Below, piece after piece: positions 16,796 to 60,442 of a stretch of 64,000 bases of DNA. Position numbers and translations under genes: made by a program. Under the pieces are notes generated by a model that saw only the letters and a list, made by a program, of their open reading frames with translations, was not told where the DNA came from and ran no database searches. The first letter of the stretch is position 1, and every line of letters begins with the position of its first letter. This DNA is from Phyllosticta citribraziliensis (lineage: Eukaryota): contig NW_027117344.1 of assembly GCF_038025025.1 (NCBI RefSeq), positions 1,054,001 through 1,118,000 on the forward strand, read 5' to 3'.

Positions 16796-17428
16796 GAGCT
16801 GCCTCTCTACTTATATTAGAGCTAAAATTACTATTAGGAATAGGAATAATAATACTAAAAATAACCCTCTAGAGCTATAAAAATAGTGCTAACTAGTAGT
16901 ACTATACTAGGAAGGAACTATTATTAAGGTATAGGTCTCTTTCTCTCCTTTTTAAAAAGCTAGAAGATCTATAGTTTATATAGTTACTAGATACTATTAT
17001 AACTCGCAGATTTCTTATTATATAGGTAAGGGCTAAAGGCAAACTACTAGAGAATATATATATGTCTTAATTAAATCTAATAAGTTAAAAGAATAAAATA
17101 TAAAAGATACTTACTACCTATATATTCCCTAGCCTTCTCTTTATACTATTCTGCCTCTTATCCTTTATATAAGGGTCCTTAGTCATTATTAGGTAAGTTA
17201 TAAAGGTAAGGTATTAATAGGCTATTATACTATATCTACCTAGGGCTATAGTAGCTAGTACTAGGCTATAGTAGCTGGTACTAGGCTATAGTAGCTAGTT
17301 ACTACCTAAGGTAAGGCTTATACTTCTTATAACTATATAATACTAGGTTTATCTATACTAGCCTTAGTACTTATATAGGTATATATATACCTATTATAAT
17401 ATGCCCCCCCTAAAGAGAAGCTAAAATT

Positions 17429-17851
17429 TGTCACAATAGGCATACACGCGCCTATACAAGTACCAGGGCCAGCATAGACAAACCTAGCATTACATAGTTA
17501 TAGGAAGTACGAGCCTCACCTTAGGCAGCAGCCCACCACAGCTTAGGCTAAAACCCACAGGCTAGCACCAGCCACTACAGCCTAGCACCAGCCACTATAG
17601 CCTTAGGAAGATACCATATAACAGCCTATTAATACCTTACCTTTATAACTTACCTAATAATAACTAAGGACCCTTATATAAAGGATAAGAGGTAGAATAG
17701 TATAAAGGAAGGACTAGGAAATATATAGGCAGCAAGTATCTTTTATATTTTATTCTTTTAACTTATTAGATTTAATTAAGATATATATACATTCTCTAGT
17801 AGTTTACCTTTAGCCCTTACCTATATAATAAGAAATCTACAAGTTATAATA
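17429..17851 (+). repeat. B1 5' LTR with ~20-bp internal tandem repeat (CTAGCACCAGCCACTACAGC)
   Basis: Direct repeat of 25246-25668; differences are almost all C/T and G/A transitions. Confidence 0.95.
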
Positions 17852-20800
17852 GATATAAAAGATTATTCTAAGTTTTAGCTCTATCCTACTTCTTTACCTA
17901 TAAAGGTATTATAATATTTAACCTAAGTAATATTGTGTGCAGCTATAGTCTTATATAAGACTACTTATTACTTTTCCCTAGTAAACCTAAGTTATCTTTA
18001 TTAGGCGCATTAGTATTATCTAAGGACTAAGGAGCATTAAGCACGTATTAACTATAGAAGTCTTTAGTTAAGACTATAAAGTAGTATATAAATATTTAGG
18101 AGGTATCCCATCTATAACCTGCTTAAGGGACATTCTAAGTAGAAGACTATAAAGATAGTATAGCTAAGAATAAAGCTAATACATCTAGTACTACTAAAGG
18201 TATCAGTACTAGTTAATTAACCTAATAAGATTCGCGCGAAGAAACTAAAGATTTATATAATACTAGACACTTATTAAATAATAATAAGAGAGGACCTACC
18301 CCTATTCTCCTATATAATTTCTACTTAGTCCTAGCAGTAGAGGTAAAAGAACATACCTAAGACCTAGGGTTAACTTATACAGTTTAAGCTCTAGTTATAG
18401 AGGCGTTTATAAAGGTACCGCGCTCAGATATTAATTAATTTAAATCTAAGATTACATCCTTAAACAAGTCTTAAGTACAGCAGCAACTAAACCGCGCACA
18501 AAGGCAAAACTAGGCTCTTAAGTAAATGCTCTTAAACTATACTAATAGACTTAGGGAAGTTCTAAGGGAAGGATATATTAGGCCCTCTTTATTAGTTTAG
18601 TACCTAAGACCTATTACCCTCTCTTAAGATCCTTCTACTAGTAGAGTTATAAGGACTCTTAGACCTCCTTTTAACTATATAAGGGAAACTACTACTAAAA
18701 CCTCTACTTTATCTTTAAGTAGTAAGAAATACTAAAGTGGTAAGGTTCCTAATCCTCCTCTTCTTACTAATAGAGAAGACCCCTTATATAAATACTAGAC
18801 CCTCCTTATATAAAACAAAATTAAATAAAACCACGATCACTTTACTAAAGATATAGTAGAGGAGACTAAATAGAATATTATAGGTTATATCATTTCCTAT
18901 ATTAGTAGAGAAGTCTTATATCACCTAACTCCTTTCCTTACTTCTTATATAAAGGCTAATAAAGTCACTCTAGATAAGGATATCTTTAAATTCCTAGATA
19001 ACCTCCTCTAGAGTCTATATAAATATAAGGATATAAAGAAGCAGTTACGCTCTCTTATATACCGCATCCCTATAGACCTTTAGAAGTTTTAATTAAACTT
19101 CATATAATTAGCCTTAGACGCAGATCTTCCCTAGGAATAGTAGAAAGAGGACTTTTATAATATAATAGATCCTCTCCTTTAAACCTATATAGTTACTATA
19201 GAGTAAGATAGGGATGTCAACTTTTATAAGTACCTCTAACAAGCCTACCCTATTACTTAAAGTCTCAGTAACTACTATTCTAACTATAGAAAACCAACGC
19301 TCACGTCGTATAAGGAACGAGTAAAGAAGAGATAATAAGAATAAGTAAAGATAACTACCTTAGGCAGTATAAGTACTTTATCTTCTAGTTATACCTAGGC
19401 GCGATCTATATCTAGGGCTCCCTCATATGATACAACCCATAAAGGTAAAGTAGAAGTCCGTATAGAGATTAGACTATATAATTACTATAGCCAGTTTAGC
19501 TATTTATAGAGACAATGCCCACAACCTAAGATAAAGGTAATAGAGTTAGTTAAAGAAGAAAGCACTAAAGATATCTATATAAATAAAGGAGATCAGTCTT
19601 TATTAGAAAATAATAAGGCCTAGGTAAAGTCTCCTGCCTTAGGTCTAAACTTAGAGCAATATATATTAAAGATTCTTATATAAATCTTAGTTACTTTATT
19701 AGAGGTGTACCCTTTACCGTATAAACCTTAATTGTATCTAATAGCCGCGCCTTAGAAATTCATGCCCTAGCTAATACTAGTACTAGTAGTATAAGTTTTA
19801 TTTACCCTAAGCTACTACTAACTCTCTAGTCTATAGGTGCTATAAAAAAGAGAATAATAGGCGAAGGGCTTAATATTACTAGGTTTAACTAATATATAAA
19901 TGAGAAAGTTAATTTTTACTTTTATCTTTAACTCTACTTCTAGGATTAAATAGTTTCTACTTATACTTTTATTTATAATATTAGCCGTAACAACATGATT
20001 CTTAGGTGATAGTTTTTTAACTAGTATGATATTCTTCTAGACTATAAATAATGTAAACTAGTCTAGAGATAGCTACTAGTTAACCAATCCTTTTAGCATC
20101 TTTTATACCTACTAAAAGTCTCCGTGCGAAGTAATAAACCGCAGAAAGAATATTAAGTAGATGCAGACTATAGAGATAAAAACTTTAATAAATACCTTCT
20201 TTCCTTAGTATAGGTTATTAAGGGAATTGAATTTTAAACTTAAGATGCTTTTAAGCTTTCTATCTATAAAATACAAGTTGCGCTAATAGAGATCTATACT
20301 ATTAACCTTATACAAGTTTAAGCAGCTCTTAAAGATAAAGAAACTAAGGAATTATTAGCTTCTAAGCTACTAGCTACTTATAAGGAATTTTAAGATGTAT
20401 TTTCTAAAATAGAGTCTAATAAGCTACTACTATATTACATAGGGGTTAATTATAAAATATCTCTTATATATAATAGTCTACTAGAGCTTCTGCCTAGTCC
20501 TCTCTATAGAATATCTCTAGAGCAGCTTAAGGCTATAAAAGAGTATATTATTAAGAACCTTTAGAAAGGCTTTATTACTAAGAGCTTTACTGCCTATGCT
20601 TCTCCTATTCTTATAGTAAAAAAGCCTAGTAGGGGATAGAGATTTTATATAGACTACTAACAGCTTAATAAATAAACTGCTAAGGATTCGCACCCCCTTC
20701 CTCTTATTATAGAGTTACTTTAGCGCATTAGAAAGGGCAAAATTTATACTAAGCTTAATATTTAATAAGCTTTCTACCACATTCATCTCACTAAGGATTC

Positions 20801-23561
20801 TAAAGACAAGACTACCTTCTATATAAGATATAGCTTATTTAAATACTATATCTTACTATTTAGATTAAGCAACAGACCTACAGCCTTTTAATATTTTATT
20901 AACCAGGTTCTCTTTAAGTATTTAGACGATTTTATTATAGCTTTTATAGACAACATGCTTATTATCTCTAAAAACCCTATAGAGCATAAGGAACAAGTAA
21001 AAAAAGTACTAGTAAGACTATAAAAAGTAGGACTACAGGTAGATTTAAAGAAGAGTAAGTTTTCAGTTACTTATATAAAGTTTCTTAGATATATTATTTC
21101 TATAGAAGGTATTTAAATAGACCTAGACAAGGTAGAACCCATATAAAACTAGCTAATACTAAAAACCCTTAAAGCTCTTTAATCCTTCCTAGGTTTCTAT
21201 AATTTCTACTAATAATTTCTCCCTAACTATAGATAAATTAGCCAGCTATTAGAGAAACTATACTCTAAGGTAAAATAGTAATAACTAGGACCCCTAGAAG
21301 AAGAGGTAATTTAACGACTTAAGAAGCTGATATATAGTGATATACTCCTAGCCAATTATAACCCTACTCTTAATACTCATATAGAGACTGACGCAAGTAA
21401 TAGAGTTACTACTAGCATTTTAACACAGCTCTAGCAACCTTTATATAATTAGAAACTAGTAGTATTCTACTCTAAGGTAATAGCAGACGCAGAACTTTAT
21501 TATAGAATTTTAGATAAAGAACTACTAGCTATTAAGAATAGACTAGAAGAATAGAGACTAATACTTATCAGCCTTAAAAAACCTTTTCTTATAATTATAG
21601 ACTATTAGGTATTAGAGTACTACTCTACTAAATGACAACTTAATTAATAACAAGCTAGATAGTCTAAGTTTTTTATAGAGTTCTATATATAATTCTCCTA
21701 TTAACTAGGAAAGGAAAATATCATCACCAATTACCTTACTTAAAAATAAGAAGACCTAAAGACTTAAAAAGAAAAGGTAAGGGCTATATAAGAGATGTAC
21801 CTTATCCTACTAGAAACTATTATCCCTCTTTCTATTTTAGAATAAGAACTTCCTCCTCTAGTATTATTTTTAGATAAACTCCTCTATATAAACTAGGAAG
21901 ATTCTAAATTAGAACTCTAGAGATAGAAAGCCCTCTTAAAGGACCTTAAATAAAGAAATAGTTAGGAACTAAAGGATGGTCTTTTACTATAATATAGTAT
22001 ACTCTTTATACTAGATTATAATAACCTCCGCGCAAGAATACTTAATACTTTATATACTACCTATATAACCACCTATCCTAGTATTATAAAGATGTGAAAA
22101 CTCCTTAAGCAATATTACTACTAGCTAGCTATAAATTATACAATTAATATTTATAGGCGAGGATACTATATTTACCACTAAATAAAAGAGTTTTATAATA
22201 AAGACCTAGGCCTTTTATAACCCCTAGAGATTCCTACTTAACCCTAGTAATACTTAGCTATAGATTTTAAAGAGATGCCTAAAGACTAAAAAGGCTATAA
22301 TACAATCCTAGTTATTATAGACTAGTTAAGTTAAAGAACCTTTAGCTTACCTTATATAAAGAAGATTAATACTAAAGGAGTCTCTAGACTCTTTTATAAA
22401 TATATCTACTATATTTATAGAAACCCTAAGTCTATCCTATCTAACTAAGGCCCTTAGTTCATCTTAGCGTTTATAAATAAACTATATAAGCTGACTAGTA
22501 TAGAGCAGTATTTTAACTTATCCTACTACTCTTAAACTAATAGTATTATAGAGATTATTAATTAGCATCTTATATAAAAATTAAGACCTTTTATTAATTA
22601 CTTTTAAAATAATTAGTCTGATCTTCTGCTATTAATAGACCTCATACAAGTAATACTTCTCTATAAAGCTACTAGACTTTTATCTTTTAAGATTAAGTTA
22701 GGATATTCCCCTTAAATATACTATAACTAGTAATAAAGAATAGAGACCCCCTAGTAACTAGAAAAGATAGCTTGTATAGTAGCGTAAATGCTATAAAAGA
22801 GAAGATAAGAAGCTTTTAAATTTATAAAGAATCTTATTCTTAAATCCTAAGAGTATATACGCTAATAAGCTAATAAATACCGTTGCGCGCTAGACTTTAT
22901 AGTTAGAGATTATATCTATATTAAGAAAACTAGATAGTCTACTAATTAGCTAAACCTTAAATTAGACTTCCCTAATACTAGACCTTTTAAGATTATAGGA
23001 ATAGAAGGACCCTCCTACATCCTTAATCTTCCCTTATATATAAAGATAGTCAACCTTTTCCACGCTAATAGGCTATATAAGGCCAAAATAGAACAGCTTC
23101 CTAGTTAGGAATATACTAAACCTAAACCTAAGATTATTTAAGACGAGCCTAAGTAGGAAGTAGACTATATTTAAGCTAGTTAAGTCTTATATAAGAAGCT
23201 TTAATACCAAGTTAAATAGACTAGATACGACTAAGATGACTAGTAGTATAATGTAAGTTCTTTTAGCAGCGCGCTATAGAAAATTAAAGAATTCCACTTA
23301 TTATACCCCATTATAGTAGGACTACTAAAAAATCTAGAAAAATAGAAGGCTGCCTTCCTCTAAGAAGAACTATAGATTAAAATAGAAAGTAATAATAAAA
23401 TAAGTTACTTAGGCCTATAGTAAATATTATAAAGATATAGAAAGTAGACTAATTAGTTTACTATCTACCCTTATATAAATACTATTAATCTTAACTTCTA
23501 CTCTCTAGTCTCTCCTTTTTACTACTTATTCCCTACTATCCTCTTTTTTAATTTCTACCCT

Positions 23562-24403
23562 TTACTTCTTTCCTTTTCCCTTCTTCTTATTATAATAGTT
23601 ATTATATAAGACTATCTCCTCTAGATCCTCTAGCTTATTAGGTAGGATGTCCTACTTAGCTAAAGCCTAATTAGTTTAATCCTCTAACCTGGCTTAGTAG
23701 TATAAGTTCTAGAACTCCTCTATATAAATTTTATCTTCACGCCTCTTATAATAAGTAGGCGGCTTGGCACCCTTTAAGTTACTTATAGTGTAGTTAAGGT
23801 TACCTATACCTTAAAGGCAGTTGGCGCAGCAGCCCTATAAGAAACTAGGTAGGTGGTAATAACTAATAAATGTGTAAGTATTAGTATTGTCGCGACACTT
23901 AGTATAGCTAATAGGGTTATTAATTCTAGTATACTAGATAAGAAAAGCATCGCGCGAGCTAGCTTAAGTTTTAACTAATAAGTAGTTAAATTGCTAAGTA
24001 GAAACTATAATATGTAAGTAAGGCATGCTGTTATCTAAGGCTAAGATGCGCTTAGTACACTCTTATGCTTTAGAACTACTAAGGCGCGCCTATATAGTTA
24101 GTTAGATAAGAATCCCTTATATTAGCAAGATAAACTTACTTATATAATACTCTCTATATTCTTATAAGGGATATAAAGTATTAACTTAAAGTCCTACTTA
24201 ATAGGCGCCTTATTAGAGCTAACTAGCAACGCCGTAACGTGAATCTTACTATTACTACTATTATATAAAGTAGCAGGTAGTAAGTACTTAGCTACTAGAA
24301 CCTAATAAGCTATAGGATTATAATAATGGTATGTATAAGTAGGCTCTTTACCTTCTTCCTCTAAAATAGGCTGCATAATAGTGAACCGGCAGCGACGCGG
24401 CAT
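23562..24403 (-). pseudogene. Antisense accessory ORF of B1 with Cys-rich DUF3716-like domain (RIP-inactivated; 5' end uncertain)
   Basis: One frame 23963->23562 reads ASSRDAFLI(Q).TG...P..(C).KCRD......F..(C).HLP(G)F..GCCANCL.G.GNLN(C)T...KKKGKGKK-stop; KCRD and GCCANC are literal. Internal stops are all TAG/TAA derivable by RIP. Confidence 0.72.
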
Positions 24404-25245
24404 AATAGGCTAGTTAGTAGCAGGCTATATAGCTATAGATGATAAACCTTACGCGATAACTAATAATACTAATTAAGTAGAACCTAATGCTATAGTATGC
24501 TATAGGTAAAGTGATAAGCCTATAGCTGTTTCTAGCTAAATAAGTAAAGCCTGGCCTAACTAAGTCTTTATATAAGTGTCCTCCTCTATAATTGTATTAG
24601 TTAGCAAGACGGGATAATGAAGTAGTAAAACCTAGATATATAATACTACTTAATAGCCTAGATAATAATTAGTAATAGTTAGAGATAGAATTAAAGTTTA
24701 CTTATCTTAGGACTCTACGCAATAGTCCTTATAGATACTGCTAGCTAAAACAGCTCTCTAAGTAAGTAGTAACTGCGACGGATTATAAATAATGCTATAT
24801 AATAATGACTTAATACCATAACTCTTATATAATAGTAATAAGTCCTAATAGACTAGACTATAATAAGCAGTAGATGCATTAAGCGTATAGCAGCTAGGAA
24901 TATCTACTTTACTATTAGTAGGGTATAAATTATTTAAATTATTAGAACCTTCACGCGCGACAGTTAGTTTACTAGATTATAGCTAAATTAGACTAGGATA
25001 ATAACATACTTTAATAGGGAGCTTTAGATATAGCCAAGCAAGATAGTGACCTTCTACAGGTTACATAGCAAAAGAGATAGTAATAGAAAGAGATAGTATA
25101 GTAGTAGACCTAGACTAATAATTATACTATACATATAGAATACTTAAATCACTAAATCACTACCATTATATATTATAAGTCTACGCCTACACAAGCACCT
25201 ACAGCTGCTAATTCCTATAATTTCAGCTTCTCTTTAGGGGGGGCA

Positions 25246-25668
25246 TATCACAATAGGCGTATATATGCCTATATAAGCACTAGGGCCAGCATAGACAAAC
25301 CTAGCATTATACAGTCATAAGAAGCACGAGCCTCACCTTAGGTAGCAGCCCACCACAGCTTAGGCCAAAACCTACAGGCTAGCACCAGCCACTACAGCCT
25401 TATACCAGCCACTACAGCCTTAGGAAGATACCATACAACAGCCTATTAATACCTTACCTTTACAACTCACCTAATAATAACTAAGGACCCTTATATAAAG
25501 GATAAGAGGTAGAATAGTATAAAGGAAGGACTAGGAAATATATAGGTAGTAAGTATCTTTTATATTTTATTCTTTTAACTTATTAGATTTAATTAAGATA
25601 TATATACATTCTCTAGCAGTTTACCTTTAGCCCTCACCTACATAACGAGAAATCTGCGAGTCGTAACA
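25246..25668 (+). repeat. B1 3' LTR
   Basis: Follows the PPT, ends GTAACA, followed by TSD AAATT. Confidence 0.95.
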
Positions 25669-26499
25669 AAATTATAGGAATTAGTAGCTATAGGTACTTA
25701 TATAGGCGCAGTCTTATAATATATAATAGTGGTAATTTAGTAATTTAAGTATTCTATATAGTTATAAAGTATAATTATTAGTCTAGCTTTATTACTATAC
25801 TATCTTTCTCTATTACTATCTTCTATTACTATATAACCTATAGAAGGTTACTATCTATCTTAGCTATATCTAGAGCTCCCTACTAAAGTATGTTATTATC
25901 TAGTCTAAATTAGCTATAATCTAGTAAACTAACTGTTATATATAGGCTTAAAGGAGCTATATTCTACTAAGAGTAATAAAGAAGGTCCTATACCTAGTAT
26001 ACTAGCTATGCTAGCTATACTAGCTGTGCCCGTTACTTATTATAGTCTAGTCTATTAGGATTCCTTACTATTATATAAGGCTTATCTGCTTAAGTTGTTA
26101 TTATATAGTATTATTTATAATCTATTATAGTTACTACTTACTTAGAGAGCTGTTTTAGCTAGTAGTATATCTTAGGACTATTATATATAAGGTAAGTAAA
26201 GTCTATCTCTTTAAAACTGTTACTAATTATTATTTAGGTTACTAAGTAGCTTTATATATCTAAATTCTACCACTTTATTATCCTATCTTACTAACTAATA
26301 TAATTATAGAGGAGAATACTTATATAAATAGGTAGTTAGGCCAGGCTTTACTTATTTAGCTAGGACTAGCTATAGGCTTATTACTTTACTAGCACTATCC
26401 TATAGTATTAGGTTCTATATAATTAGTATTATTAGTTATTATATAAGGTTTATTATTATTAGCTATATAGCCTACTACTAGCTAGTCTACTTCTCTTAT

Positions 26500-27345
26500 T
26501 ATTATACTATATTATTACTAGTTCGCTATTATATAGCCTATCTTAGAGGAAGAAGATAAGGAGCCTATTTATATATACTATTACTATAATCCTATAGCTT
26601 ATTAGGTCCTAGTAGCTAAGTACTTAGTACCTATAGGTTTATATAATAGTAGTAATAGTAAGATCTATATTATAGCATTACTAATTAGTTCTAATAAGGT
26701 ACCTATTAAGTAGGACTTTAAGTTAATACTTTATATTCCTTATAAGAATATAGAGAGTATTATATAAGTAAGTTTATCTTATTAATACTAGAAATTCTTA
26801 ACTAACTAATTATATAGGCTTACCTAGGTAGTCCTAAAGTATAAGAGTATACTAAGTATATCCTAGCTTTAGGTAATAGTATACCTTACTTATATATTAT
26901 AGTTTTAGCTTACTACTTTAACTACTTATTAGTTAAAACCTATACTAGCTTATTTAATACTTTTCTTATCTAGTATACTAGAATTAATAACCCTATTAGC
27001 TATACTAAGTATTATAATAATACTAATACTTATATATTTATTAATTATTACTACTTATCTAGTTTCTTATAGGGCTACTATACTAACTACCTTTAGAGTA
27101 TAGGTAACCTTAACTATACTATTAGTAATTTAAAGGGTATAAAGCTACCTACCTATTATAAGAGGTATAAAGATAAAATTTATATAGAAGAGTACTTAGG
27201 CTTATATAATTAAGCTATATCTAAGGATTAAACTAATTAGGCTTTAGCTAAGTAGGACCTCTTACTTAATAAGCTAAAGGATCTAAAGGAGATTATTTTA
27301 TATAATAATAGTTATAATAAGAAGAAAGGAAAGGGAAAGAAGTAA
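26500..27345 (+). pseudogene. Second copy of the antisense DUF3716-like ORF, in B2
   Basis: 26944-27345 aligns without gaps (402 nt) to B1 23963-23562 and ends in the same KKKGKGKK-stop. Confidence 0.68.
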
Positions 27346-30300
27346 AGGGTAGAAAGTAAGGATAAGAATAGTAAGGAATAAGTAGTAAAAAGGAGAGATT
27401 AAAAAGTAGAAGTTAAGGTTAATAGTATTTATATAAGGGTAGATAGTAAACTAATTAGTCTACTTTCTATATTATTATAATATTTACTTTAGGCCTAAGT
27501 AACTTATTTTATTATTACTTTCTATTTCTATTTATAGTTCTTTTTAAAGGAAGGTAGTCTTCTATTTTTCTAGGTTTTTTAGTAGCCCTACTATAGCTAG
27601 GTATAAAGAGTAAAACTCTTTAATTTTCTATAATATACTACTAAAAGAACTTATATTATACTACTAATTATCTTAGTTATATCTAGTCTATTTAACTTAA
27701 TATTAAAGCTTTCTATATAAGACTTAGCTAGCTTAAATATAGTCTACTTTCTACTTAGGCTTATCTTAAATAATTTTAGGTTCTAGTTTAGTATATTCCT
27801 AACTAGGAAGCTATTTTAATTTAGCTTTATAGAGCCTATTAGTATAGAAAAGGTTAACTATCTTTATATATAAGGGAAGATTAAGGATATAGGAAGATCT
27901 TTCTATTCTTATAATCTTAAAAGATCTAGTATTAGGGAAGTCTAATTTAAGGTTTAGCTAATTAGTAGACTATTCTAATTTTTTAATATAGATATAATCT
28001 CTAACTATAAAGTCTAGTATATAATGGTACTTATTAGCTTATTAATATATATACTCTTAGGATTTAAGAATAAGGTTCTTAATAAATTTAAAAGCTTCTT
28101 ATCTTCTCTTTTATAGTATTTATACTACTATATAAGCTATCCTTTCTAGTTACTAGGGAGTCTTAGTTTATTATTACTAATTATAATATATTTAAGGGGA
28201 ATATTCTAATCTAATTTTAAAAGGTAAAAGTCTAGTTACTTTATAAAGAAGTATTACTTATATAAGGTCTATTAAAGGTAGAAGATTAGACTAATTATTC
28301 TAAAAGTAGTTAATAAAGGGTCTTAATCTTTATATAAGATACTAATTAATAATCTTAGTAATATTATTAGTTTAAGAATAATAGGATAAATTAAAATACT
28401 ATTCTATACTAGTTAGCTTATATAGTTTATTTATAAAAGCTAAGATAAACTAAGGGCCTTAGTCTAAAAGAATAGACTTAGGATTCCTATAAATATAGTA
28501 GATATATTTATAAAAGAGCCTAGAGACTCCTTTAATATTAATCTTCTTTATATAAAATAAGCTAAAGGTTCTTTAACTTAACTAGTCTATAATAATAAGG
28601 ATTATATTATAGCCTCTTTAATCTTTAGGTATCTTTTTAAAATCTATAGCTAAGTATTACTAGGATTAAGTAGAAATCTCTAGGGGTTATAAAAGGCCTA
28701 GGTCTTTATTATAGAACTTCTTTATTTAGTAGTAGATATAGTATCCTTATCTATAAATATTAATTATATAATTTATAGCTAGCTAATAGTAATATTACTT
28801 AAAGAGTTTCTATATCTTTATAATACTAGAATAAGTAGTTATATAGGTAGTATATAAAGTATTAAGTATTCTTATATAAAGGTTATTATAATTTAGTATA
28901 AAGAGGGTACTATATTATAGTAAAAGACTATCCCTTAGTTCTTAACTACTTCTTTATTTAATATCTTTTAGAAGAGCTTTTTATTTTTAGGGTTCTAATT
29001 TAGAATCTTCTCTATTTATATAGAGAAGTTTATCTAAAAATAATACTAAAGGAGGAAGGTCTTATTTTAAAATAGAAAGAGGGATAATAATCTTTAGTAG
29101 GATAAGATATATTATTTATATAGCTTTTACTTTTTCTTTTTAAGTCTTTAGGTCTTCTTATTTTTAAGTAAGATAATTAGTAAGAATATTTTCCTTTCCT
29201 AAATAATAGGAGAATTATATATAGAATTCTATAAAAAACTTAGACTATCTAGCTTATTATTAATTAAGTTATTTTAGTAGAGTAGTACTCTAATACCTAG
29301 TAGTCTATAATTATAAGGAAGGGTTTTTTAAGGCTAATAAGTATTAGCCTCTATTCTTCTAGTCTATTCTTAATAGCTAGTAGTTCTTTATCTAAGATAC
29401 TATAATAAAGTTCTATATTAGCTATTACCTTAGAGTAGAATACTACTAGTTTCTACTTATATAAAGGTTATTAAAGCTATATTAAAATACTAGTAGTAAC
29501 TCTATTACTTATATTAGTCTCTATATAAGTATTAAGAGTAGGATTATAATTAACTAGGAGTATATTACTATATATTAGCTTCTTAAGTTATTAAATTACC
29601 TCTTCTTTTAGGGGTCCTAGTTATTACTATTTTATCTTAGAGTATAGTTTCTCTAATAGCTAGCTAATTTATCTATAGTTAGAGAGAAATTATTAGTAGA
29701 AATTATAGAAACCTAGAAAAAATTAAAGAGCTTTAAAGGTTTTAGGTATTAGCTAGTTTTATATAGGTTCTACCTTACCTAGGTCTATTTAAATACCTTT
29801 AATAGATATAATATATCTAAGGAACTTTATATAAGTAACTAAAAACTTATTCTTTTTTAAATCTACTTATAGTCCTACTTTTTATAATCTTACTAGTACT
29901 TTTTTTACTTATTCTTTATATTCTATAAGGTCTTTAGAGATATTAAGTATATTATCTATAAAAGCTATAATAAAATTATCTAAATACTTAAAGAGAACCT
30001 AGTTAATAAAATATTAAAAGGCTATAGGTCTATTACTTAATCTAAAAGGTAGGATATAATATTTAAATAAACTATATCTTATATAGAAAGTAGTTTTATC
30101 TTTAGAATCTTTAATAAGATAAATATAGTAGAAAGCTTATTAAATATCTAGCTTAATATAAATCTTACCCTTTCTAATATACTAAAGTAACTCTATAATA
30201 AGAGAAAGAGGGTATAAATCCTTAATAGTTTATTTATTAAGCTATTAGTAGTCTATATAAAATCTCTATTCTCTACTAGGCTTTTTTACTACTAGAATAG

Positions 30301-33300
30301 GAGAAGTATAGGTAGTAAAGCTTTTAGTAATAAAGCCCTTTTAAATATTCTTAATAATATACTCTTTTATAGCCTTAAGCTACTCTAGAGATATTTTATA
30401 GAAAGGACTAGAGAGAAGCTCTAGTAAACCCTTATATATAAGAGATATTTTATAATTAACTCCTATATAATAAGGTAGTAGCTTATTAGACTCTATTTTA
30501 GAAAATATATCTTAGAAATCCTTATAAGTAATAAGTAGCTTAGAAGCTAGTAGTTCCTTAGTTTCTTTATCTTTAATAGCTTATTAAACTTATATAAGGT
30601 TAATAGTATAGATCTCTATTAGTATAACTTATATTTTATATATAGAAAGCTTAAAGATATCTTAAGTTTAAAATTTAATTCCCTTAATAACCTATACTAA
30701 GAGAAGAAGATATTTATTAAAGTTTTTATCTTTATAGTCTATATCTACTTAGTATTCTTTCTATAGTATATTACTTTATATAGAGACTTTTAGTAGATAT
30801 AAAAGATATTAAAAGGATTAGTTAACTAGTAGCTATCTCTAGACTAGTTTATATTATTTATAGTCTAGAAGAATATTATACTAGTTAAAAAACTATTACC
30901 TAAGAATTATATTATTCTAGCTAATATTATAAATAAAAGTATATATAGAAACTATTTAATCCTAGAAATAAAGTTATAAATAAAAGTAGAAATTAACTTT
31001 CTTATTTATATATTAGTTAAATCTAGTAATATTAAGCCTATTACCTATTATTTTCTTTTTTATAGTACCTATAGACTAGAGAGTTAATAGTAGCTTAGAA
31101 TAGATAAAACTTATACTACTAGTATTAGTATTAGCTAGGGTATAAACTTCTAAGGTATAGCTATTAGATATAATTAAGGTTTATATAATAAAGGGTATAT
31201 CTCTAATAAAGTAACTAAGATTTATATAAGAACCCTTAATATATACTACTCTAAGTTTAGACCTAAGGTAGGAGACTTTACCTAGGCCTTATTATTTTCT
31301 AATAATAACTCTTCTTTATTATTTATATAAATATCCTTAGTACTTTCTTCTTCTATTAACTCTATTACCTTTATCTCTAGTTATAGGTATTATCTCTATA
31401 AATAGCTAAACTAGCTATAGTAATTATATAGTTTAATCTTTATATAAACTTCTACTTTACCCTTATAGGTTATATTATATAAGGAAGCCCTTAAGAAAGA
31501 TTATACCTAAGTATATCTAAAAGATAAAGTACTTATATTATTTAAGGTAGTTATCTTTACTCTCTCCTATTATCTCTTCTTAGCTTATTCCTTATATAAG
31601 GTAAGTATTAGTTTTCTATAATTAGATTAGTAGTTACTAAGACTTTAAATAATAGGATAGGCTCTTTAGAGGTACTTATAAAAATTAATATCCTTATCTT
31701 ACTTTATAGTAACTATATAGGTTTAAAGAAGAGGATCTATTATATTATAAAAGTCCTCTTTCTATTATTCTTAGAGAAGATCTATATCTAAGGCTAATTA
31801 TATAAAGTTAGATTAAAACTTCTAAAGGTCTATAGGAATATAATATATAAGTAAGTATAACTACTTCTTTATATCCTTATACTTATATAAACTCTAAAGA
31901 AGGTTATTTAGGAATTTAAAGATATCCTTATCTAAAGTAACTTTATTAACCTTTATATAAGAAGTAAGAAAAGGAGTTAAGTATTATAAGACTTCTCTAC
32001 TAATATAGGAGATAATATATTCTATAATATTCTATTTAGTCTCCTCTACTATACCTTTAGTAAAGTAATTATAGTTTTATTTAATTTTATTTTATATAAG
32101 AAGAGTCTAATATTTATATAAGGGGTCTTCTCTATTAATAAGAAGAGGAGGATTAGGAACCTTCCTACTTCTATATTTCTTATTAAAAGAAGAAGTAGAG
32201 GTTTTAGTAGTAATTTCCTTTATATAAATAGAGGGAGGTCTAAGAGTCCTTACTACTCTACTAGTAGAAGGATCTTATAAAAGGGTAATAGGTCTTAGGT
32301 TCTAGCTTAATAGAGAGGGCCTAATATACCCTTCTTTTAAGGCTTCCCTTAGGCTATTAGTATAGTTTAAGAGTATTTATTTAAGAGCCTAGTTTTACCT
32401 TTATATATAATTTAATTACTACTATACTTAAGGCTTATTTAAAGATATAATCTTAGATTTAAATTAATTAATATCTAAATATAGTACCTTTATAAATACC
32501 TCTATAACTAGAGCTTATATTATATAAGTTAGTCTTAGGTCTTAAGTATATTCCTTTATCTCTACTACTATAATTATATAGAAATTATAAAGAAGAATAG
32601 GAGGAGCTCTTCTTTTATTATTATTTAATAGAGGTCTAGAGTTATATAAATCTTTAGTTCCTTTATATAAGTCTTATTAAGTAGATTAACTAGTACTAAT
32701 ACCTTTAGTAGTACTAGATATATTAGCTTTATTCTTAGCTATACTATCTTTATAGTCTTCTACTTAGAATATCCCTTAAGTAGGTTATAGATAGGATACC
32801 TCCTAGATATTTATATACTACCCTATAGCCTTAAGTAAAGACTTCTATAGTTAATATATACTTAATACTCCTTAGTCCTTAGATAATACTAATATATCTA
32901 ATAAAGATAACTTAGATTTACTAGGGAAAAGTAATAAGTAGTCTTATATAAGACTATAGTTATATATAATATTATTTAGGTTAAATATTATAATACCTTT
33001 ATAGGTAAAGAAGTAGGATAGAGCTAAAATTTAGAATAATCTTTTATATCTATTATAACTTATAGATTTCTTATTATATAGGTAAGGGCTAAAGGTAAAC
33101 TACTAGAGAATATATATATATCTTAATTAAATCTAATAAATTAAAAGAATAAAATATAAAAGATACTTACTACCTATATATTCCTTAGCCTTTTCTTTAT
33201 ACTATTCTACCTCTTATTCTTTATATAAGGGTCCTTAGTCATTATTAGGTAAGTTATAAAGGTAAGGTATTAATAGGCTATTATACTATATCTATCTAGG

Positions 33301-33407
33301 GCTATAGTAGCTAGTACTAGGCTATAGTAGCTAGTACTAGGCTATAGTAGCTAGTTACTACCTAAGGTAAGGCTTATACTTCTTATAACTATATAATACT
33401 AGGTTTA

Positions 33408-36400
33408 TATAATGCTAGCCCTTACCCTTACTAAGGAGGAACCTATATAGGGGCTATATAGTAGCTACTTAGGCCCTAAGAGGGCTATAAGGCTAAGTAA
33501 GAAATATATAAAACCCCTAGCTAGGCTAAACCCTTAGAAACTAAGATTTTATCTATTATCTAGGATACTAAATATATTATTCTTACTTACTTTAACCCCC
33601 TATAGTACTAAATCTTATATTTAAAATCTTTAACTATTATAGCTAGTTAAATTAATAAAAAATAGCTCCTATTACCTATTTAGTAAGTATTATCTCTAAT
33701 ACTAACTTACTAGCTACTAGCTAGCTATTTAGTAGCTAAAAGTCTATTAACTAGAGGCTAGACCTCCCCCTAATTAGTAAAGATACTTATAGTAAAGGTT
33801 AGAATCTAAATAAGGGTATAAGCTACTACTTAGCTATACTAATACTAAACCTATATATAGTAACTATTAATAAGAAAATTATAGTACTACTAATAATACT
33901 TAACTTAATAGATACTAAAGAGCTTATTAAAGTATATTAGTAAATCTAGAAGCTCTAAGAGATTAAAAGAAGCCTCTTAAAGCTACCTAATCTAGACCTA
34001 ATAGGAGGCTACTTATAGCCTAAGCTATAAGCCTCCTATTATAACCCTCTTAACTCTTTTATTAAAGCCCCTATATCTAAGCTTATAAGTATAGAGGTAA
34101 AAGATATTAACTCCTAGTTCTAGGCCCTAAATAATATATTTAAAATATATAGTACTTCTAAAGACTTAGGGTACTAGTTATAATAGGCTACTTAAGGGCT
34201 AGCTATTAATAAGGTAAACCTATATAATAAGGTATTTAATACCCTTAACTTAAAAATAAGTCCCTTAGTATACTTTAAAGAATTTTATATATTTATTATA
34301 GATTAAATCTAGGACCCTAATATATAGAGGTTTAAAATATATATAAAGTTCTTTAATATAACCTAAGAAAAGGGGTAGGAGTTTAAAAGCCTATAATTTA
34401 TACTAGAAGTAGAAGAATACTATTTAAAGTTTAAAATTATAAATAAAGAATACTATATTATATACTAGTTCTTATAGATATACCCTATACTTTATATTAA
34501 GCTAATAAAGATAAGTACTAAGAGCTAGATAAAGACTAAATATAAAGTATTTATTAAAGTTAAAAAGGCTAAGGAGCTATTTAAATAGTCCTTTAAAAAG
34601 GGTAACCCTAAGGGGGTACCTAAATAGGGCTAGTTTAAACCTAGCTTAATACCCCCTTAGGGGCTAAGACTAGAGAAAAAGTATTAAGGATTAATATCTA
34701 AGAGTAGGACTAATAAACTAATATATTTAAAGAATAGCTAAAAGGGGTATTAGAATAGTAATTAAAGCTATTTAGATAGTACCCTCTAGTTAAAGAGAGA
34801 CTAACTATTAGCTAATAAGAAATTAGAAAAAGATATACTTTAGTTATATATCTAAGAGCTTCTTAATAACTAGAGTAGGAGAACTAATAAAGAAGCTATT
34901 AAGTAATAGATAATTTACTAGTAGTATAAGTTATATATAATATAGCTACTAAGACCTACTCTCTAATAGCCCTTATTAATAATAGTATAACCCTAAATAT
35001 AATTTAGAGGTTTATAATATTAGATAAGAGATTAGTCCCTATTTAAATATTATCTAGTTACTATCTAATTATTATCCTAGTAGATAGGTCTCCTCTTATC
35101 CTAGGCTTAACCTATAAGTTCCTAACTATAATCTAAAATAATTATAATTATAATAGGACTATAGGCCCTTAGCTATTCTAGAAAAGTTAAAAGGTAGTAT
35201 TTAATCTTATCTTTAGCCTAGAGTAGATAGGTAAGGCTAAGTACTACTTTAAGTACTTCTAAGAATATAAAATATTATTCTCTTAGGCTAATCTAAGTTA
35301 TAAGCTAGTAATTAAGTATATCTTATTAAATAAGCTAAAAGATAAGATTAGCCCTAAAGAATATATCTACTATACCTAGATTATAGGTACTATAATATAA
35401 TAACCCTAATAGGTTAGCTACTTAGGTCCTATAAGGACCTTATAGGATATATAATTATTTATAGCTACTATTAGTATATTTAATAGTAGCTATTCCTAGG
35501 ACCTAGTAACCTATATAGATACTAGTAAGGAGCCCTTTAAGGCCCTTTTAAAATAGTATATAGAATTTAATAATATCTTTAATAATAAACTTACTAGTAT
35601 CTTAGCCTAGAATATAGAGTATAATTATATAATTAATCTAGAGGATAGTAAAATACTACTATAGTTACTAATCTATAATCTATTTAAGAGAGAACTAAGT
35701 ATCCTTAAGAAATACCTAGAGAAGGTATTATACCTTAGATAAATTAGACCTAATAAGTTACCTATTAAGGCCCTAATCCTCTTTATTCTAAAGGCTAATA
35801 GGACCCTATACCTTTATATAAACTACTAAGGGCTTAATAAGGCTACTATTAAGAATTAGTACCCTTTACTACTAATTAAGGAGCTAATAGACTATATCTT
35901 AGGGGCTACTATCTATATAAAGCTAGATCTCTATAATACCTACTATTAGCTCTATATTAAAGTAGGGGATAAATAGAAAATAGCTTTTAAAATATACTAT
36001 AGCTATTATAAGTATATAATAATACCCTTTAGACTAGCTAATACTCTAGTATCCTTCTAGGTATATATCTATTATACCTTAGCTAGGTACCTAGACTCTA
36101 TCTATATTATCTATCTAGATAATATCCTTATCTACTCTAAAGATAAGATAGACTATATCTACTATATTAAATTAATCTTAGAATAGTTATAGGAATAGAA
36201 ACTATATATAAAGAGTTTAAAGTATATATTCTATATAAAGTATATTAAATTCTTAGGGTTTATAATTACCCCTAATAGTATCTAAATAGATACTAAATAG
36301 GTCTAGACTATTAAGGAATAGCTAGAACCTTAAAGCTACTAGAATATCTAAGTATTCCTAGGCTTTACTAACTTCTATTACTAGTTTATTTAGAACTATT

Positions 36401-39400: not shown

Positions 39401-41356
39401 GAGAGTATTATAGTAAGTAGAAGTAATATATATATATAATAGCTAGAGCTACTTAAGCTATATATTTATTATAATATTAGTAGGATTATTAGGGCTAAAG
39501 AAACTACCTACTCCCTATAAAGGTTAGTTAAAGAATAGTAAAGCTAAATAGGGCCTAAAGGGTAGTAACTTACCTACTAATACTCCTAAGTAATATAATA
39601 ACTTATATAGTAATAATAACTATACTTTATAACTATTATTCCCTCTACCTTTATATAATTATCTAGGGTCTTAGTAAAGTTCTATATTATCTAGTCTAGG
39701 GTATTAAAATAGCTAAACTAAGATACTAATAAATAGATAAATAGGTTATTATTAATTAAGGTAGTTATATTATAGATATTATTCTTTAAAAGCTTACTAG
39801 TATATAATAACTTAATATTAGAGTATACTAAAGGAATATATATAGCTACTATACTAGTAGCTAGTAGGTAGCTAGTTAATAATAAAGTAGTACCTTATAT
39901 CTAAGCCTAGGTCTAGTAATAAGGTAGTACTACCTAAGAAGTAATAGTATAAATTATATTTTAGATTAGATACTTATACTCCTCTAGAGTAATATTTACT
40001 ATATAGTAGAAATAGTTATTAATCTAAGGATAAAATAAGTAGATAAACCTTAATAGTACCTAAATAGTATACCTAATTATACTAATTAGCTATTAAGGTA
40101 TAGTATATATACTTACTACTACCTCTAATAGCTATATTATAGCTAATAAATAATATAGTAATCTAAGCCTAGATAATTATAAAATCCCTATATAAGGTTA
40201 ACTATATAAAACTATTAGATAATAGATAAAGGTAAACTTACTAAAGGTAAGTCTAAGGCTTATAACTACTAGAGCTAGTAGAACTACTATCTCTATTAGA
40301 TAAAGTACTAGGTATCTTATACTTATAAGATAAGGTCTATAGCTTTAGAATAGGTACTAAAGGGTTATCTAGTAGTATCTAATCCTAATACTAGATATAA
40401 TAAGAATAGCCCTAATATACTAAAAATAGCTAAGGTTAAAAGTATACTAGGAGGCTATCTATAGTAGTATATATAAGGTAAGTAGGAGCTATAATCTATA
40501 TAAGAGGAAAAAGTAGAAGGGTAAAGATTAAATATAGAGAAAGATTTAAGGCTAAAAGGTATAATACCTATTTATACTCTAATAGATACTAACTCTATAC
40601 CTATAACTAAACTACTAGGCTAGTTATACTTAGGTAGATATATAAATAACCCTAATAGATACTAGAGGTATATAGTAAGGAGGCTATAAAGGCCCTAATT
40701 ATAGGCTATAATATAGCCTAGTAACCTTTACTATACTCTAAAAAAGAAGCCCCCTAGTATTAAAGTAAAATAATACTATATAATAACTATAGATTAAGAC
40801 CCTTACTAGCTAGCCTAGAAGATACCTAGAGGCCCTTAATATAAAGATAGCTAGCTAATAAGGTAAGCCTAGGAAATAAAGGGTAAATAGTCTATCCTTA
40901 GTAGCCTATAATAGGATAAAGAACCTAACTAGGGGGCTAAAGGGACCCTAAGGAGTTATAATATAAATAGTAGTCTAACCCTATTATAAAAACTACTAGA
41001 GAGGTAGGAATACCCTCTAAAAGGCTAGCCTACTATAATAGCTAGGTAGCCTTTTATAATACTATTAATAACCCTTAAAAAAGGGTATACTAAGAGTAGG
41101 GGAACTAAAGGACTAGGGATAGTCCTTTTTAAAGGGGGGAATAATATAATACTAGCCCTTACCCTTATTAAGGAGGAACCTATATAGGGGCTATATAGTA
41201 GCTACTTAGGCCCTAAGAGGGCTATAAGGCTAAGTAAGAAATATATAAAACCTCTAGCTAGGCTAAACCCTTAGAAACTAAGGTTTTATCTATTATCTAG
41301 GATACTAAATATATTATTCTTACTTAATTTAACCCCCTATAGTGCTAAATCTTATA
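33408..41356 (+). mobile_element. Ty3/gypsy chromovirus C, full length (7949 bp), inserted in the 5' LTR of B2
   Basis: 212-bp LTRs at 33408-33619 and 41145-41356; TSD GTTTA (33403-33407, 41357-41361); PPT AAAGGGGGGA ~41131-41140. De-RIPed protease ALID.GAT (~34970), RT IYLDDIL (~36110-36130), RNase H TDAS (~36640), integrase (~37500-38640), chromodomain WEVE.I.DH...Y.VKW.GY (~38710-38870). Confidence 0.95.
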
Positions 41357-41504
41357 GTTTATCTATACTAGCCTTAGTACTTATATAGGTATATATATAC
41401 CTATTATAATAGATACCTAGGGCCTTAAAATCCTTATCTCTATAGTCTTTAAGTTTTAAGGGATATTAAACTAGATAAATAAATAAATAAATAAAAGTAA
41501 TTAT

Positions 41505-41885
41505 AGAAAGAAAGAGAGAAAGAGAGAAAGAGAGAAAGAGAGAAAGAGAGAAAGAGAGAAAGAGAGAAAGAAAGAAAGAGAGAAAGAGAGAAAGAGAGAA
41601 AGAGAAAAAGAGAGAAAGAGAAAAAGAAAGAAAGAAAAAAAGAGAGAAAGAAAAAAAGAGAGAAAGAGAGAAAGAAAGAAAAAGAGAAAGAGAGAAAGAG
41701 AGAAAAAGAGAAAAAGAAAAAGAGAAAAAGAAAAAAAGAGAAAAAGAGAGAAAGAGAGAAAGAGAGAAAGAGAGAAAGAAAAAAAGAAAAAAAGAGAGAA
41801 AGAGAGAAAGAGAGAAAGAGAGAAAGAGAGAAAGAGAGAAAGAGAGAAAGAGAGAAAGAGAGAAAGAGAGAAAAAGAGAAAGAGA

Positions 41886-41950
<65 letters not shown>

Positions 41951-41952
41951 AA
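41505..41952 (+). repeat. Homopurine microsatellite (AAAGAGAG)n grading to (AAAG)n, ~450 bp
   Basis: Only A and G on the plus strand throughout. Confidence 0.97.
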
Positions 41953-42198
41953 CCTTAGGTATATATATAAAAATAAGGGTTTATATGAATGTGTGAGTGA
42001 AACTAATAACAGAAAGTGTGGTGCGCCCTAGCATAACACAACTGTTATAGTACTAGAGGGCTCAACCACCGGACAGTATTTAAGAGGCACTGCCCGTCCC
42101 AACCCTTATCTAAAAACAAGCCCGAACCGGCCTATTCTAGTACTGGCAACGAGTAGGAATCCACTCATCCAATCAGCGGGACTAAAAGCACTACGGCA

Positions 42199-42963
42199 AT
42201 GACCGCACACTACATCCTCAACCCCAGCGCCGAGCATAGTCACACGGTGATTTTCCTCCATGGACGCGATAGCACAGCACCAGAATTTGCCGTGGAGTTT
42301 TTCGAGAGCCAAGCATCTGACGACAAAACACTTCCTGAAATATTCCCAAGCTTCAAATGGGTGTTTCCGACATCCACTCTTCGGAATTCTGCACGGTTCA
42401 GTATCGAGATGTCCCAGTGGTTCGACATGTGGTCTCTTGAAGACCCAGAGGAACAGAAGGAAACACAGAAGGCTGGCTTGTCCGAGAGCATCAGCTCTAT
42501 ACTCATAGCCATCGAAGATGAAGCCTCCTTGATAGGAACGGAAAAGATTATACTTGGCGGAATCAGCCAGGGCTGTGCTACAGCCATACATGCTCTTCTC
42601 CAAGGAGAGCGAAAACTCGGTGCTTTTGTTGGACTATGCAGCTGGCTCCCCTTCCAAGCCGAGATTCAGTCAATCACAAAAACGGCAAGAAGTCCAGCAG
42701 AGACGCGGGATCGGTTGCGTTGTCTGTTCAGACTGCAACATCACCGCGAAAACAAGTTAAACTCTGCCCTGGAGACTCCGGTGCTGCTTGCTCACTCTGA
42801 AGACGACGAGGTGGTCTCTATCCGATACGGAGAGAAACTGTCGAGAGGACTGATGGAGCTGGGTATGCCCGTCGAGTGGCGCACGTATAAGCATGGCGGG
42901 CACTGGGTGAACGAACCTCAGGGAATCGACGACATGGTTGGGTTCCTGAAAAAATTCTGTTAG
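42199..42963 (+). CDS. Phospholipase/carboxylesterase (acyl-protein thioesterase-like alpha/beta hydrolase), 254 aa, intronless
   Basis: IFLHGR, WFD, nucleophile GISQG, HSEDDEVV acid, GGHW catalytic His. Confidence 0.92.
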   Translation: MTAHYILNPSAEHSHTVIFLHGRDSTAPEFAVEFFESQASDDKTLPEIFPSFKWVFPTSTLRNSARFSIEMSQWFDMWSLEDPEEQKETQKAGLSESISSILIAIEDEASLIGTEKIILGGISQGCATAIHALLQGERKLGAFVGLCSWLPFQAEIQSITKTARSPAETRDRLRCLFRLQHHRENKLNSALETPVLLAHSEDDEVVSIRYGEKLSRGLMELGMPVEWRTYKHGGHWVNEPQGIDDMVGFLKKFC

Positions 42964-50670: not shown

Positions 50671-50944
50671 CTCATCCAACCAACCCAAACGATCCGCCCA
50701 TTTGCACGACAATGCCATCGACCCTGCTTGCCTAAGCTTGCTGCTCTCCGCCGCCGCGTCCTGTCCTTTCTTGGCCTTGTCAACATTCCTTTCGTCTCCC
50801 GGGTCCGCCCTCCCGTGCATCTTTGCGCGTCATAGCCACGCCGGCTTTCGTGAGAATTTCAGTCCTTGCAGGCCTCTCCCCCTTCCCCGCGACGCGTCCG
50901 CTCGCCCGCCGTCCATCCTCGCCAAGCCAAAACATTGATGTTGG

Positions 50945-58790: not shown

Positions 58791-60442
58791 ATGGCTTGGT
58801 GCGTCCGCTTCACTCCCAAGGTGCCCACCCAATTACTCGCCAACGCGTCACTCACGTCACCAGGTCAACGAAATTATCTGCCATCGCGTAGATCATGACT
58901 CAGTAAGACTTGACAGCCAACTGTGAGGTACACTCAGAGCTGACGCGCGTGAAGGTCGAGGAATATCTACTCCGCTGGGCAGCTCCCGCCGGCGCTCCCA
59001 CAGCCACACCTCTTTCCTGGCACCCAGTCAATGAGCTTTCGTCTTGCATCGAGAAGCTCCAAAAATACCTGGAGTCATTGTCAACCGGAAGCAGGTACGC
59101 CATCTGTCGCCATGCGAACGCGTAACCTGCTCCAGGTAGACGCTTGGGCTAACTCATCACGTGATGTCGCAGCGAGACGCGTCCTCGCGTTCACACAGGA
59201 AAGAACGACCGACGCCTGAATCAAGCCCAGTCTCCCATTTCCAATGTCAAGGTCTACAATGGAGAGCTGAAAGAGCTCGATGGCATGACGGTCGTAGTGC
59301 CGGTAACCAAGCCGAATCAGTGGGATTGTTCATTGCGCTCACAAAAATCACAGTCTTCAAGCCCCAACATCACTCGCGTCGACATTCGTCAGATTGTCAC
59401 ACCCTCCATGCTTGAGAACGCTCAGCATGCACGAACGGACACAGCGGAGAGAGCTGTGAGGCAAGAAGTTCTATCGCGCCTTGAGCGAATACCCGGTCCC
59501 AAAGTTGGCCTCATCAACGAGGTTGACAACTCCTCGCCGCCGTTAAGCTTCACGTTCATCGACAAGAACATCCTCGGCGACGGCGTTCATGCGGCTGATG
59601 AAGACACCGTCACTGGCTGCACAAAATGTCGCGCCCACATGGGCCAAGGCATTGGGTGCGAGTACTCGAAGCTGTGTGACTGCCTTGAATATGCCGCTGT
59701 CAACGACACAGAACGCATGCTCCCCGAGGAGCGCGCCCGCTGGGAGCGAATAAAAAATACAGGAGAGGGAGATACCACTGGGCTGCCAAAGAAGTTCCCA
59801 TACTACTCCAGCGGTCCTCGGGCGGGATGCCTCGTTCCTTTTTATTTGGAAAGACGAACCGTAATTTACGAATGCAACCCCAAATGCAAGTGCGGACCAA
59901 CTTGCAAAACACGAGTAGTCCAACACGGTCGGAAAGTCCCCCTGGAAATATTCAAGACCCCAGATGGAAGAGGCTGGGGCATTCGTTCCAAAACGCAGCT
60001 TAGGATCGGACAATTCGTGGATACGTATCGCGGTGAGATCATCACCGATGCCGAAGCCTCACGGCGTGAGAGTCTCGCCCATGGAGCGAAGGACAGTTAC
60101 CTTTACTCGCTCGACAAGTTTGCGGAGACGTGTGGCTTCGGCCAGGAGGAGCTGTACGTCATCGATGGCCAGTTTCACGGTGGACCAACGCGCTTCCTTA
60201 ACCACTCGTGCGATCCGAACTGCCGGCAGTACGTTGTATCTTACAACAAACATGACCCCAAGGTCTACGAAATTGCCTTCTTCGCGACCAGAGACATAGC
60301 TTCTGGAGAGGAGCTCACGTTTGACTACCTTGACAAGGAGGAGGAGGAGGATGAAGAGATGGATGAAGAGGTGGCCTCAGGAAAAACACGGATCAAATGC
60401 CGCTGTGGCACCAAGAAGTGCAGGAGATACCTTTGGCTTTGA
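58791..60442 (+). CDS. dim-5: Histone H3K9 methyltransferase, DIM-5/Clr4/KMT1 family, with putative N-terminal chromo-like exons (start codon uncertain)
   Basis: Pre-SET Cys clusters (GCTKC..C..CDC; ECNPKCKCGPTC), SET motifs GWG, YRGE, YLYSLD, RFLNHSCDPN, ELTFDY, post-SET CRCGTKKCRRYLW. Introns 58903-58954 and 59095-59172 join upstream exons in frame with ORF 59285-60442; possible first intron 58821-58863. Confidence 0.92.

Follow-up and report, generated by a model that had tools for sequence, protein, structure and literature searches.

The window, by which we mean the whole 64-kb stretch of DNA that was analyzed, is divided into two parts of very different composition, with a G+C content of 22–32% over positions 1–41,000 and of 51–62% in the remainder. 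A run of 56 tandem AGAGAGAA units (41505–41952) lies exactly where the AT-rich repeat block meets the GC-rich gene region. The first gene-like feature past the repeat block is a plus-strand frame (42157–42960) with a phospholipase/carboxylesterase (Abhydrolase_2) domain (E = 1.4e-24). Farther into the GC-rich DNA, a stop-free plus-strand frame of 2,298 codons (50939–57832) matched no Pfam family at E ≤ 0.001, and a second stop-free plus-strand frame (59165–60439) combines Pre-SET (E = 2.5e-14) and SET (E = 3.6e-23) domains, the architecture of histone H3K9 methyltransferases, at a distance of 18 kb from the degraded repeat block.

A chromovirus nested in an older copy of its own family

The AT-rich part holds a complete LTR retrotransposon of the Gypsy/chromovirus type, here called B1 (17429–25668, plus strand), which was delimited by its LTR pair, its target duplication, Pfam matches, and pol homologues. 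Its LTRs are 423 bp long with TG..CA ends, and the element is flanked by a 5-bp target duplication, AAATT, at 17424–17428 and 25669–25673. The pol region (20616–23418, plus strand) contains reverse transcriptase, RNase H, integrase, and a chromodomain-like end, interrupted by many stop codons of the mutational type described below. Pfam recognized RVT_1 (E = 1.2e-16) together with two RT-RNase H models, and in a protein search that scored 7,999 candidates, 84 Gypsy polyproteins reached E ≤ 0.001 (best E = 2e-138, 97% query coverage); the named homologues came from Xylaria, Penicillium, and Podosphaera. These homologues carry rve, and several also carry chromo domains, while the chromodomain of B1 itself was recognized by eye only. 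A purine run that we assign as the polypurine tract (25236–25245, plus strand) directly precedes the 3′ LTR (25246–25668, plus strand). With its LTR ends, target duplication, reverse transcriptase, RNase H, and pol order, the carrier is a Ty3/Gypsy chromovirus. As the first-pass annotation had noted, about 1.8 kb separates the end of pol (∼23418) from the purine run and the start of the 3′ LTR (∼25236–25246), and it is this post-pol stretch that concerns us here.

B1 is inserted into B2, an older and more heavily mutated copy on the minus strand. The body and truncated 5′ LTR of B2 occupy 25674–33349, and its polypurine tract and 3′ LTR are separated from them by the B1 insertion, at 16994–17428, the insertion point being ∼20 nt upstream of the B2 polypurine tract and the B2 body resuming at 25674. 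Since B1 is nested in B2 with a target duplication, the two are independent insertions of a once-active family and not the arms of a palindromic or inverted duplication. The truncated 5′ LTR of B2 is adjoined by one of a pair of direct repeats (33407–33622 and 41144–41359; 216 nt, 97% alike, spacing 7.7 kb), which is probably another LTR element.

Repeat copies within the AT-rich part differ overwhelmingly by C/T and G/A changes, with 718 transitions and 119 transversions between B1 and B2, and TGA is almost absent (n = 59, compared with 5,122 TAA and 4,596 TAG). This substitution bias and the scarcity of TGA are the signature of fungal repeat-induced point mutation (RIP). RIP makes transitions only, no transversions, and yields TAA and TAG stops out of CAA, CAG, and TGG codons.

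The antisense frame and its Cys motif

The first-pass annotation had proposed that the post-pol stretch carries a conserved antisense ORF of 402 nt (23562–23963, minus strand) with a Cys-rich domain and a basic tail. Its literal reading proved accurate: from 23963 to 23562 the minus strand gives AFLI, a stop and YTR, then TKCRD and GCCANC, and ends in KKKGKGKK followed by a stop. The same frame in B2 (26944–27345, plus strand) keeps the register, as had been said, and is more RIP-mutated; KCRD has become KYYN and GCCANC has become GYYTNY, so that all four literal Cys residues of B1 are Tyr in B2. The term ORF does not hold, as the B1 frame contains eight internal TAA or TAG stops in addition to the terminal one within 134 codons, B2 contains seven plus the terminal stop, and a list of stop-to-stop ORFs of at least 60 aa has no entry in the 23562–23963 antisense stretch. 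The stop density of the claimed frame (9/134) equals that of its neighbor (9/133) and is about that of pol read in frame (85/939). When the antisense reading is extended to 313 codons, all 31 of its stops are TAA or TAG, and over 274 codons of the frame 25 stops are common to B1 and B2. A two-copy de-RIP of the frame left 29 of 275 stops and brought about no change inside the Cys motif. Upstream of that motif, both copies have an uninterrupted row of six TAA/TAG codons in the claimed frame (24246–24263, minus strand); these could be the RIP product of a short CAA/CAG (poly-Gln) run or, equally, a simple repeat.

The frame had also been called gap-free. B1 and B2 do align without gaps there, but the gap-free span runs from 21637 to 24386 (2,750 nt) and includes pol, so the register carries no information specific to the antisense frame. 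Indels were found only closer to the polypurine tract and LTR, in agreement with the earlier description: in the pairwise alignment, the first is a 12-nt difference, an in-frame length, at 24408, and it is followed by others of 2, 6, 18, 11, 1, 1, and 4 nt.

The Cys-rich motif itself, with its literal C...GCCANC, lies at 23790–23945 on the minus strand and was assigned to no Pfam family. It holds several Tyr and stop codons that are derivable by RIP from Cys, Gln, or Trp codons, and it fits the pattern C-x2-C...F-x2-C...G-x-C-x-N-C...C only when four Tyr codons are counted as former Cys. Such readings may arise by chance, and one alternative is that the post-pol stretch is non-coding internal DNA in which the Cys reading is a chance product of RIP-spared, CpG-rich patches. 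Several observations are in line with this: a single TGCTGC hexamer supplies two of the four literal Cys; a six-frame reading of the 41-kb AT-rich part contains 10 windows with at least four Cys codons per 30 codons, the majority from B1, the less damaged copy, in frames that do not code, and several in LTRs and antisense to pol; and, as given above, the stop density of the claimed frame is not below that of other frames. Against it stands the distance from pol to the polypurine tract, since 1.8 kb is long for a spacer.

Transversions as a record of past selection

Because RIP makes only transitions, we tested for past selection with the transversions that separate B1 from B2 (17559–24386), sorted by codon position. 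In pol they fall 7/2/27 on the three positions, 22 of the 36 are synonymous, and their density is 12.8/kb overall and 28.8/kb at third positions. Transversions of the gag region are biased likewise, in a residue class (frame) other than that of pol. The bias in gag and pol indicates that the two lineages diverged under selection and that the test has power. A RIP-invariant likelihood test based on purine/pyrimidine codons gave a signal that was too weak even for pol.

For the 402-nt frame as a whole, purifying selection had been inferred from differences that are synonymous at third positions. Two such ATA/ATT differences do exist (23613 and 23784), but they make up only two of 11 transversions, which are distributed 3/4/4 over the codon positions, with three synonymous and eight not; the other two frames give an identical split. 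At 27/kb the frame is about neutral, equal to the third positions of pol (28.8/kb), and a third-position share like that of pol is rejected (P = 0.0076). This check, which is of the dN/dS type, thus speaks for neutrality, and it does so weakly because there are only 11 transversions and the copies are RIP-damaged.

The transversions are unevenly distributed along the frame. The basic tail (23562–23789, minus strand) holds 10 of the 11 transversions, that is 10 in 228 nt or 44/kb, at positions 3/3/4, and it is clearly the least conserved part of the frame and evolved unconstrained. The Cys motif (23790–23945) has no transversion relative to B2 in 156 nt, where 4.5–6.6 would be expected (P = 0.011 at the rate of pol third positions and 0.0013 at the flank rate); it had been specified before the count was made, which argues against its being an incidental product of non-coding DNA.

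The motif stands at one end of a larger block of low divergence (23785–24435), whose boundaries were chosen post hoc. The block has 12 transversions in 651 nt, or 18/kb, compared with 36–52/kb in the flanks, and so diverged two to three times more slowly; set against 26 transversions in 612 nt of gap-free flanks, the conditional binomial P is 0.010, again with boundaries fixed post hoc. Within the post-pol region, all three of the longest stretches free of transversions belong to it, and the only indel inside it is the 12-nt one. The two copies thus provide modest evidence that constraint acted on ∼650 nt, the Cys motif among them.

What was constrained is harder to read from the block. In the claimed antisense frame its transversions fall 1/4/7, and the third-position share of 7/12 has P = 0.066 and is compatible with a gag-like 75% (P = 0.16). 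This excess in a frame that had been named beforehand, together with the in-frame length of the indel, weighs against a non-coding stretch. On the other side, synonymous changes make up only three of the 12 transversions when the claimed frame is read, a share that a lack of protein constraint would predict, and the neighboring antisense frame has fewer stops within the block (12 compared with 25). Non-coding DNA of the same element, the LTR and leader, is conserved even more strongly (8.8/kb, below the 18/kb of the block), so low divergence need not imply coding; in non-coding DNA, the block would be a cis-acting part of the element at the RNA or DNA level, for example one that serves packaging or reverse transcription, directs formation of the 3′ end, or acts as an internal promoter.

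A period-3 bias cannot tell the coding strand, and the third positions of the claimed frame coincide with those of a frame on the plus strand. A short third ORF after pol in sense orientation (codon start 1 mod 3) would therefore have the same 7/12 share, and it has the highest synonymous count of the six frames (4/12). We nevertheless regard it as very improbable, given that the sense frames hold from 18 to 32 stops in ∼217 codons and contain no recognizable motif; the single Pfam hit to one of them in the post-pol region, DUF3447 at E = 0.15, was at noise level and was discarded.

Searches for homologues and families

The first-pass annotation had likened the Cys spacing to DUF3716. The resemblance is to what we take to be the pattern of this fungal Pfam family, and the likeness rests on that presumed pattern. 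A profile search gave no match to DUF3716 (PF12511), the reading staying below the cut-off of 22 bits on the 59-position model. With stops replaced by X, hmmscan against Pfam returned no family at E ≤ 10 for the 313-aa readings of B1 and of B2; pieces of 60, 60, and 37 aa from the antisense reading matched no family, nor, apart from noise, did six frames of 23421–25247 and three frames of B2. Since the two-copy de-RIP alters nothing inside the motif, the Pfam result holds for the two-copy consensus as well.

Protein searches were equally unproductive. A phmmer search of the 313-aa reading against 1.84 billion representative proteins yielded two matches only, P0003 and P0004, both long repeat proteins that aligned through 10 and seven repeated stretches and were rejected as artefacts. 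Two word-indexed protein searches with the antisense frame scored 11 and 17 candidates, of which not one reached E ≤ 10, and a sequence search of the PDB gave noise, with a best E of 0.38. In IMG/VR, a phage contig (L001) was dismissed because it had a single pattern match and the patterns were RIP-made peptides. An exact 20-nt stretch of the window occurred at 20 metagenomic loci (19 with a GC content of 50–72%, one with 48%), whose frames were full of stops; we consider these to be chance matches.

Using an alignment of undamaged pol relatives, we also found 16 more distant Gypsy contigs in IMG/VR. No G-x-C-x-N-C occurs antisense to pol in these contigs, most of which end 80–600 nt after pol; the one match to this pattern among them is the zinc knuckle of gag on the sense strand and was set aside.

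The database misses are weak evidence, since RIP has turned most of the candidate Cys codons into Tyr and this damage is common to both copies. Two outcomes that had been put forward in advance as counting against the proposed gene, the lack of a profile match and a dN/dS near 1, were thus both found, and both weigh little in view of RIP damage and of the 11 transversions available. The absence of a homologue or family in any frame would suit non-coding DNA too; at the level of RNA, however, no Rfam family was found in 17000–33500 and no tRNA in the whole window. Taken with the evidence above, we consider non-coding internal DNA with a cis-acting block a possible explanation that deserves serious weight, although we lean against it.

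The stretch in other copies of the family

Contigs covering 23400–25260 were recovered from public runs in numbers of 526, 151, and 10 under three organism labels, with one more contig in a fourth run. The stretch, which both window copies share with hundreds of contigs under three organism labels, is consequently a constant internal component of the family, as had been supposed from the window alone. Between 23400 and 24678, no indel that shifts the frame on balance reaches a share of 10% among the family contigs.

These copies are more RIP-changed than B1 at the KCRD codons, not less, and at the G or C positions retained in B1 they mostly read A or T. Reverse changes (A>G or T>C at a share of at least 10%) were seen at only 34, 38, and 26 of 1,861 places, so a de-RIP consensus of all copies is unlikely to restore much. 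The density of RIP-type changes in the copies seen implies that no protein is expressed from the stretch now.

Comparison with known antisense genes and DUF3716 carriers

The statement that chromoviruses encode only gag and pol, on which the first-pass annotation had relied, is too strong. An additional antisense gene, brtn, has been described in Boty-like Gypsy elements of Botrytis and Sclerotinia, and published diagrams place it after pol and before the 3′ LTR, beside plant Grande1, RIRE2, Retand, and PvRetro13 (PMC8365987, PMC7264820, PMC4227169). Like the element studied here, Boty belongs to Ascomycota Gypsy, has a chromodomain-type pol, and carries an extra frame on the opposite strand between pol and the 3′ LTR. 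It differs in that brtn was described in GC-rich copies free of RIP, while the present copies are RIP-damaged and have no open frame; the two are likened by layout, not by sequence.

In plants, the corresponding aORF-3R is known from maize Grande1, rice RIRE2, Silene Retand, and Phaseolus PvRetro13, where its conservation in the majority of copies within a family has been used to argue that it is functional, its role being unknown (PMC7264820). The window stretch has the same position and orientation as plant aORF-3R, lying between pol and the 3′ LTR, opposite to the gag-pol strand, and inside the element. The differences are that the plant genes belong to another kingdom and to other Gypsy lineages and have no sequence link to the window, and that conservation here means a 650-nt block in two copies. 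Neither window copy has an open frame. With regard to conservation similar to that of gag and pol, the signals are mixed: the block has 18 transversions/kb, compared with 12.8/kb in pol and 36–52/kb in its flanks, and the Cys motif has none, but the named 402-nt frame is neutral and only three of the 12 transversions in the block are synonymous.

DUF3716 proteins have been reported from a transposon of another kind. REP9 of Zymoseptoria tritici, a class II element of the IS3EU type, encodes REP9-1 (193 aa) and REP9-2 (239 aa), both with DUF3716 (PMC8232023). These are small proteins in a fungal transposon, of unknown function, and would share their domain with the window reading if the presumed Cys pattern is right; REP9 differs in being a DNA transposon and not an LTR element, and the damaged window reading gave no match to PF12511. 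A host gene is also relevant, as Fusarium PSC58 is a DUF3716 protein reported as the ortholog of a Neurospora protein that binds telomeric sequences (PMC10776026). This would lend DUF3716 a DNA-binding role, with the caveat that PSC58 is a host gene whose link to the window sequence is presumed only. In the literature consulted, no connection between DUF3716 and an LTR element was found; the original brtn paper, reportedly Zhao 2011 (Virology 417:248), and some supplements might bear on the question.

REP9 also lends substance to the idea of a passenger. In this view an ancestor of the family once captured a fragment, either from a host gene or from some other transposon (such as a DUF3716 gene), which was then copied along and was of no use to the element. 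DUF3716 genes do ride REP9, and at 193 and 239 aa their products are similar in size to the block; the tail and the upstream part of the stretch are neutral; and no such cargo was seen in the 16 distant Gypsy contigs. Useless cargo should, however, lack the lowered transversion rate of the block and its clean Cys motif, and the window contains no second, element-free copy of the post-pol stretch. The DUF3716 identity is moreover itself conjectural, and we judge this explanation unlikely.

Discussion

The layout described here, in which additional antisense sequence fixed in the family separates pol from the 3′ LTR, is genuine and of a type already described. The reading that we tentatively favor, at not quite an even chance, is that the stretch is the RIP-killed remains of an accessory gene of the element, located between pol and its 3′ LTR in antisense orientation. 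It draws on position and strand, family-wide presence, the constraint on the block, the clean Cys motif, and the precedent of brtn and the plant elements, and it is further supported by the RIP-type identity of all 31 stops and by the change from Cys to Tyr at all four literal B1 Cys in B2. Against an accessory gene are the lack of a family, homologue, or structure in any frame; the neutrality of the 402-nt frame, the 3/12 synonymous share in the block, and the lower number of stops in the neighboring antisense frame; and, finally, the 10 chance Cys clusters, the stronger conservation of the LTR and leader, and the 16 IMG/VR contigs without the motif. That the stretch coded for a protein is a hypothesis, and membership of such a protein in DUF3716 a conjecture.

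If the stretch was an accessory gene, this Gypsy family would have carried an extra, backward gene between pol and the 3′ LTR in the aORF-3R layout, comparable to brtn. The constrained part may have coded for an antisense protein of ∼200–300 residues whose C-terminal domain was rich in Cys and probably bound metal; the slow divergence of the ∼650 nt falls in the period in which gag and pol were under selection. The KKKGKGKK tail would then be either a freely evolving, disordered end or sequence beyond the true stop. Most plausibly, the product would have bound nucleic acid or chromatin and acted on the element's own expression or integration. The proposal in the first-pass annotation of a nuclear, zinc-binding and possibly anti-silencing protein expressed from the 3′ LTR side is conjectural. 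A more specific version, which we think doubtful, is that a fungal chromovirus lineage carried an antisense gene for a small Cys-rich DNA-binding protein of the DUF3716 type and that DUF3716 is a recurrent accessory module of transposons, found in LTR elements as well as in REP9.

As it stands, the stretch is a dead, unreadable remnant within a RIP-degraded repeat block. Its analysis makes a point of method, in that transversions sorted by codon position recover past selection from RIP-damaged copies, clearly so for gag and pol, and show which portions of the proposed frame were constrained and which were not. If the accessory gene is real, it would be the second antisense accessory gene of a fungal Gypsy element after brtn and the first to be tied to a named domain family, one that also rides a DNA transposon, and it would suggest that fungal transposons deal with their host, or with their own chromatin, in a common manner. 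Should the DUF3716 module reading be true, an unstudied fungal domain family would gain a testable role in transposon control.
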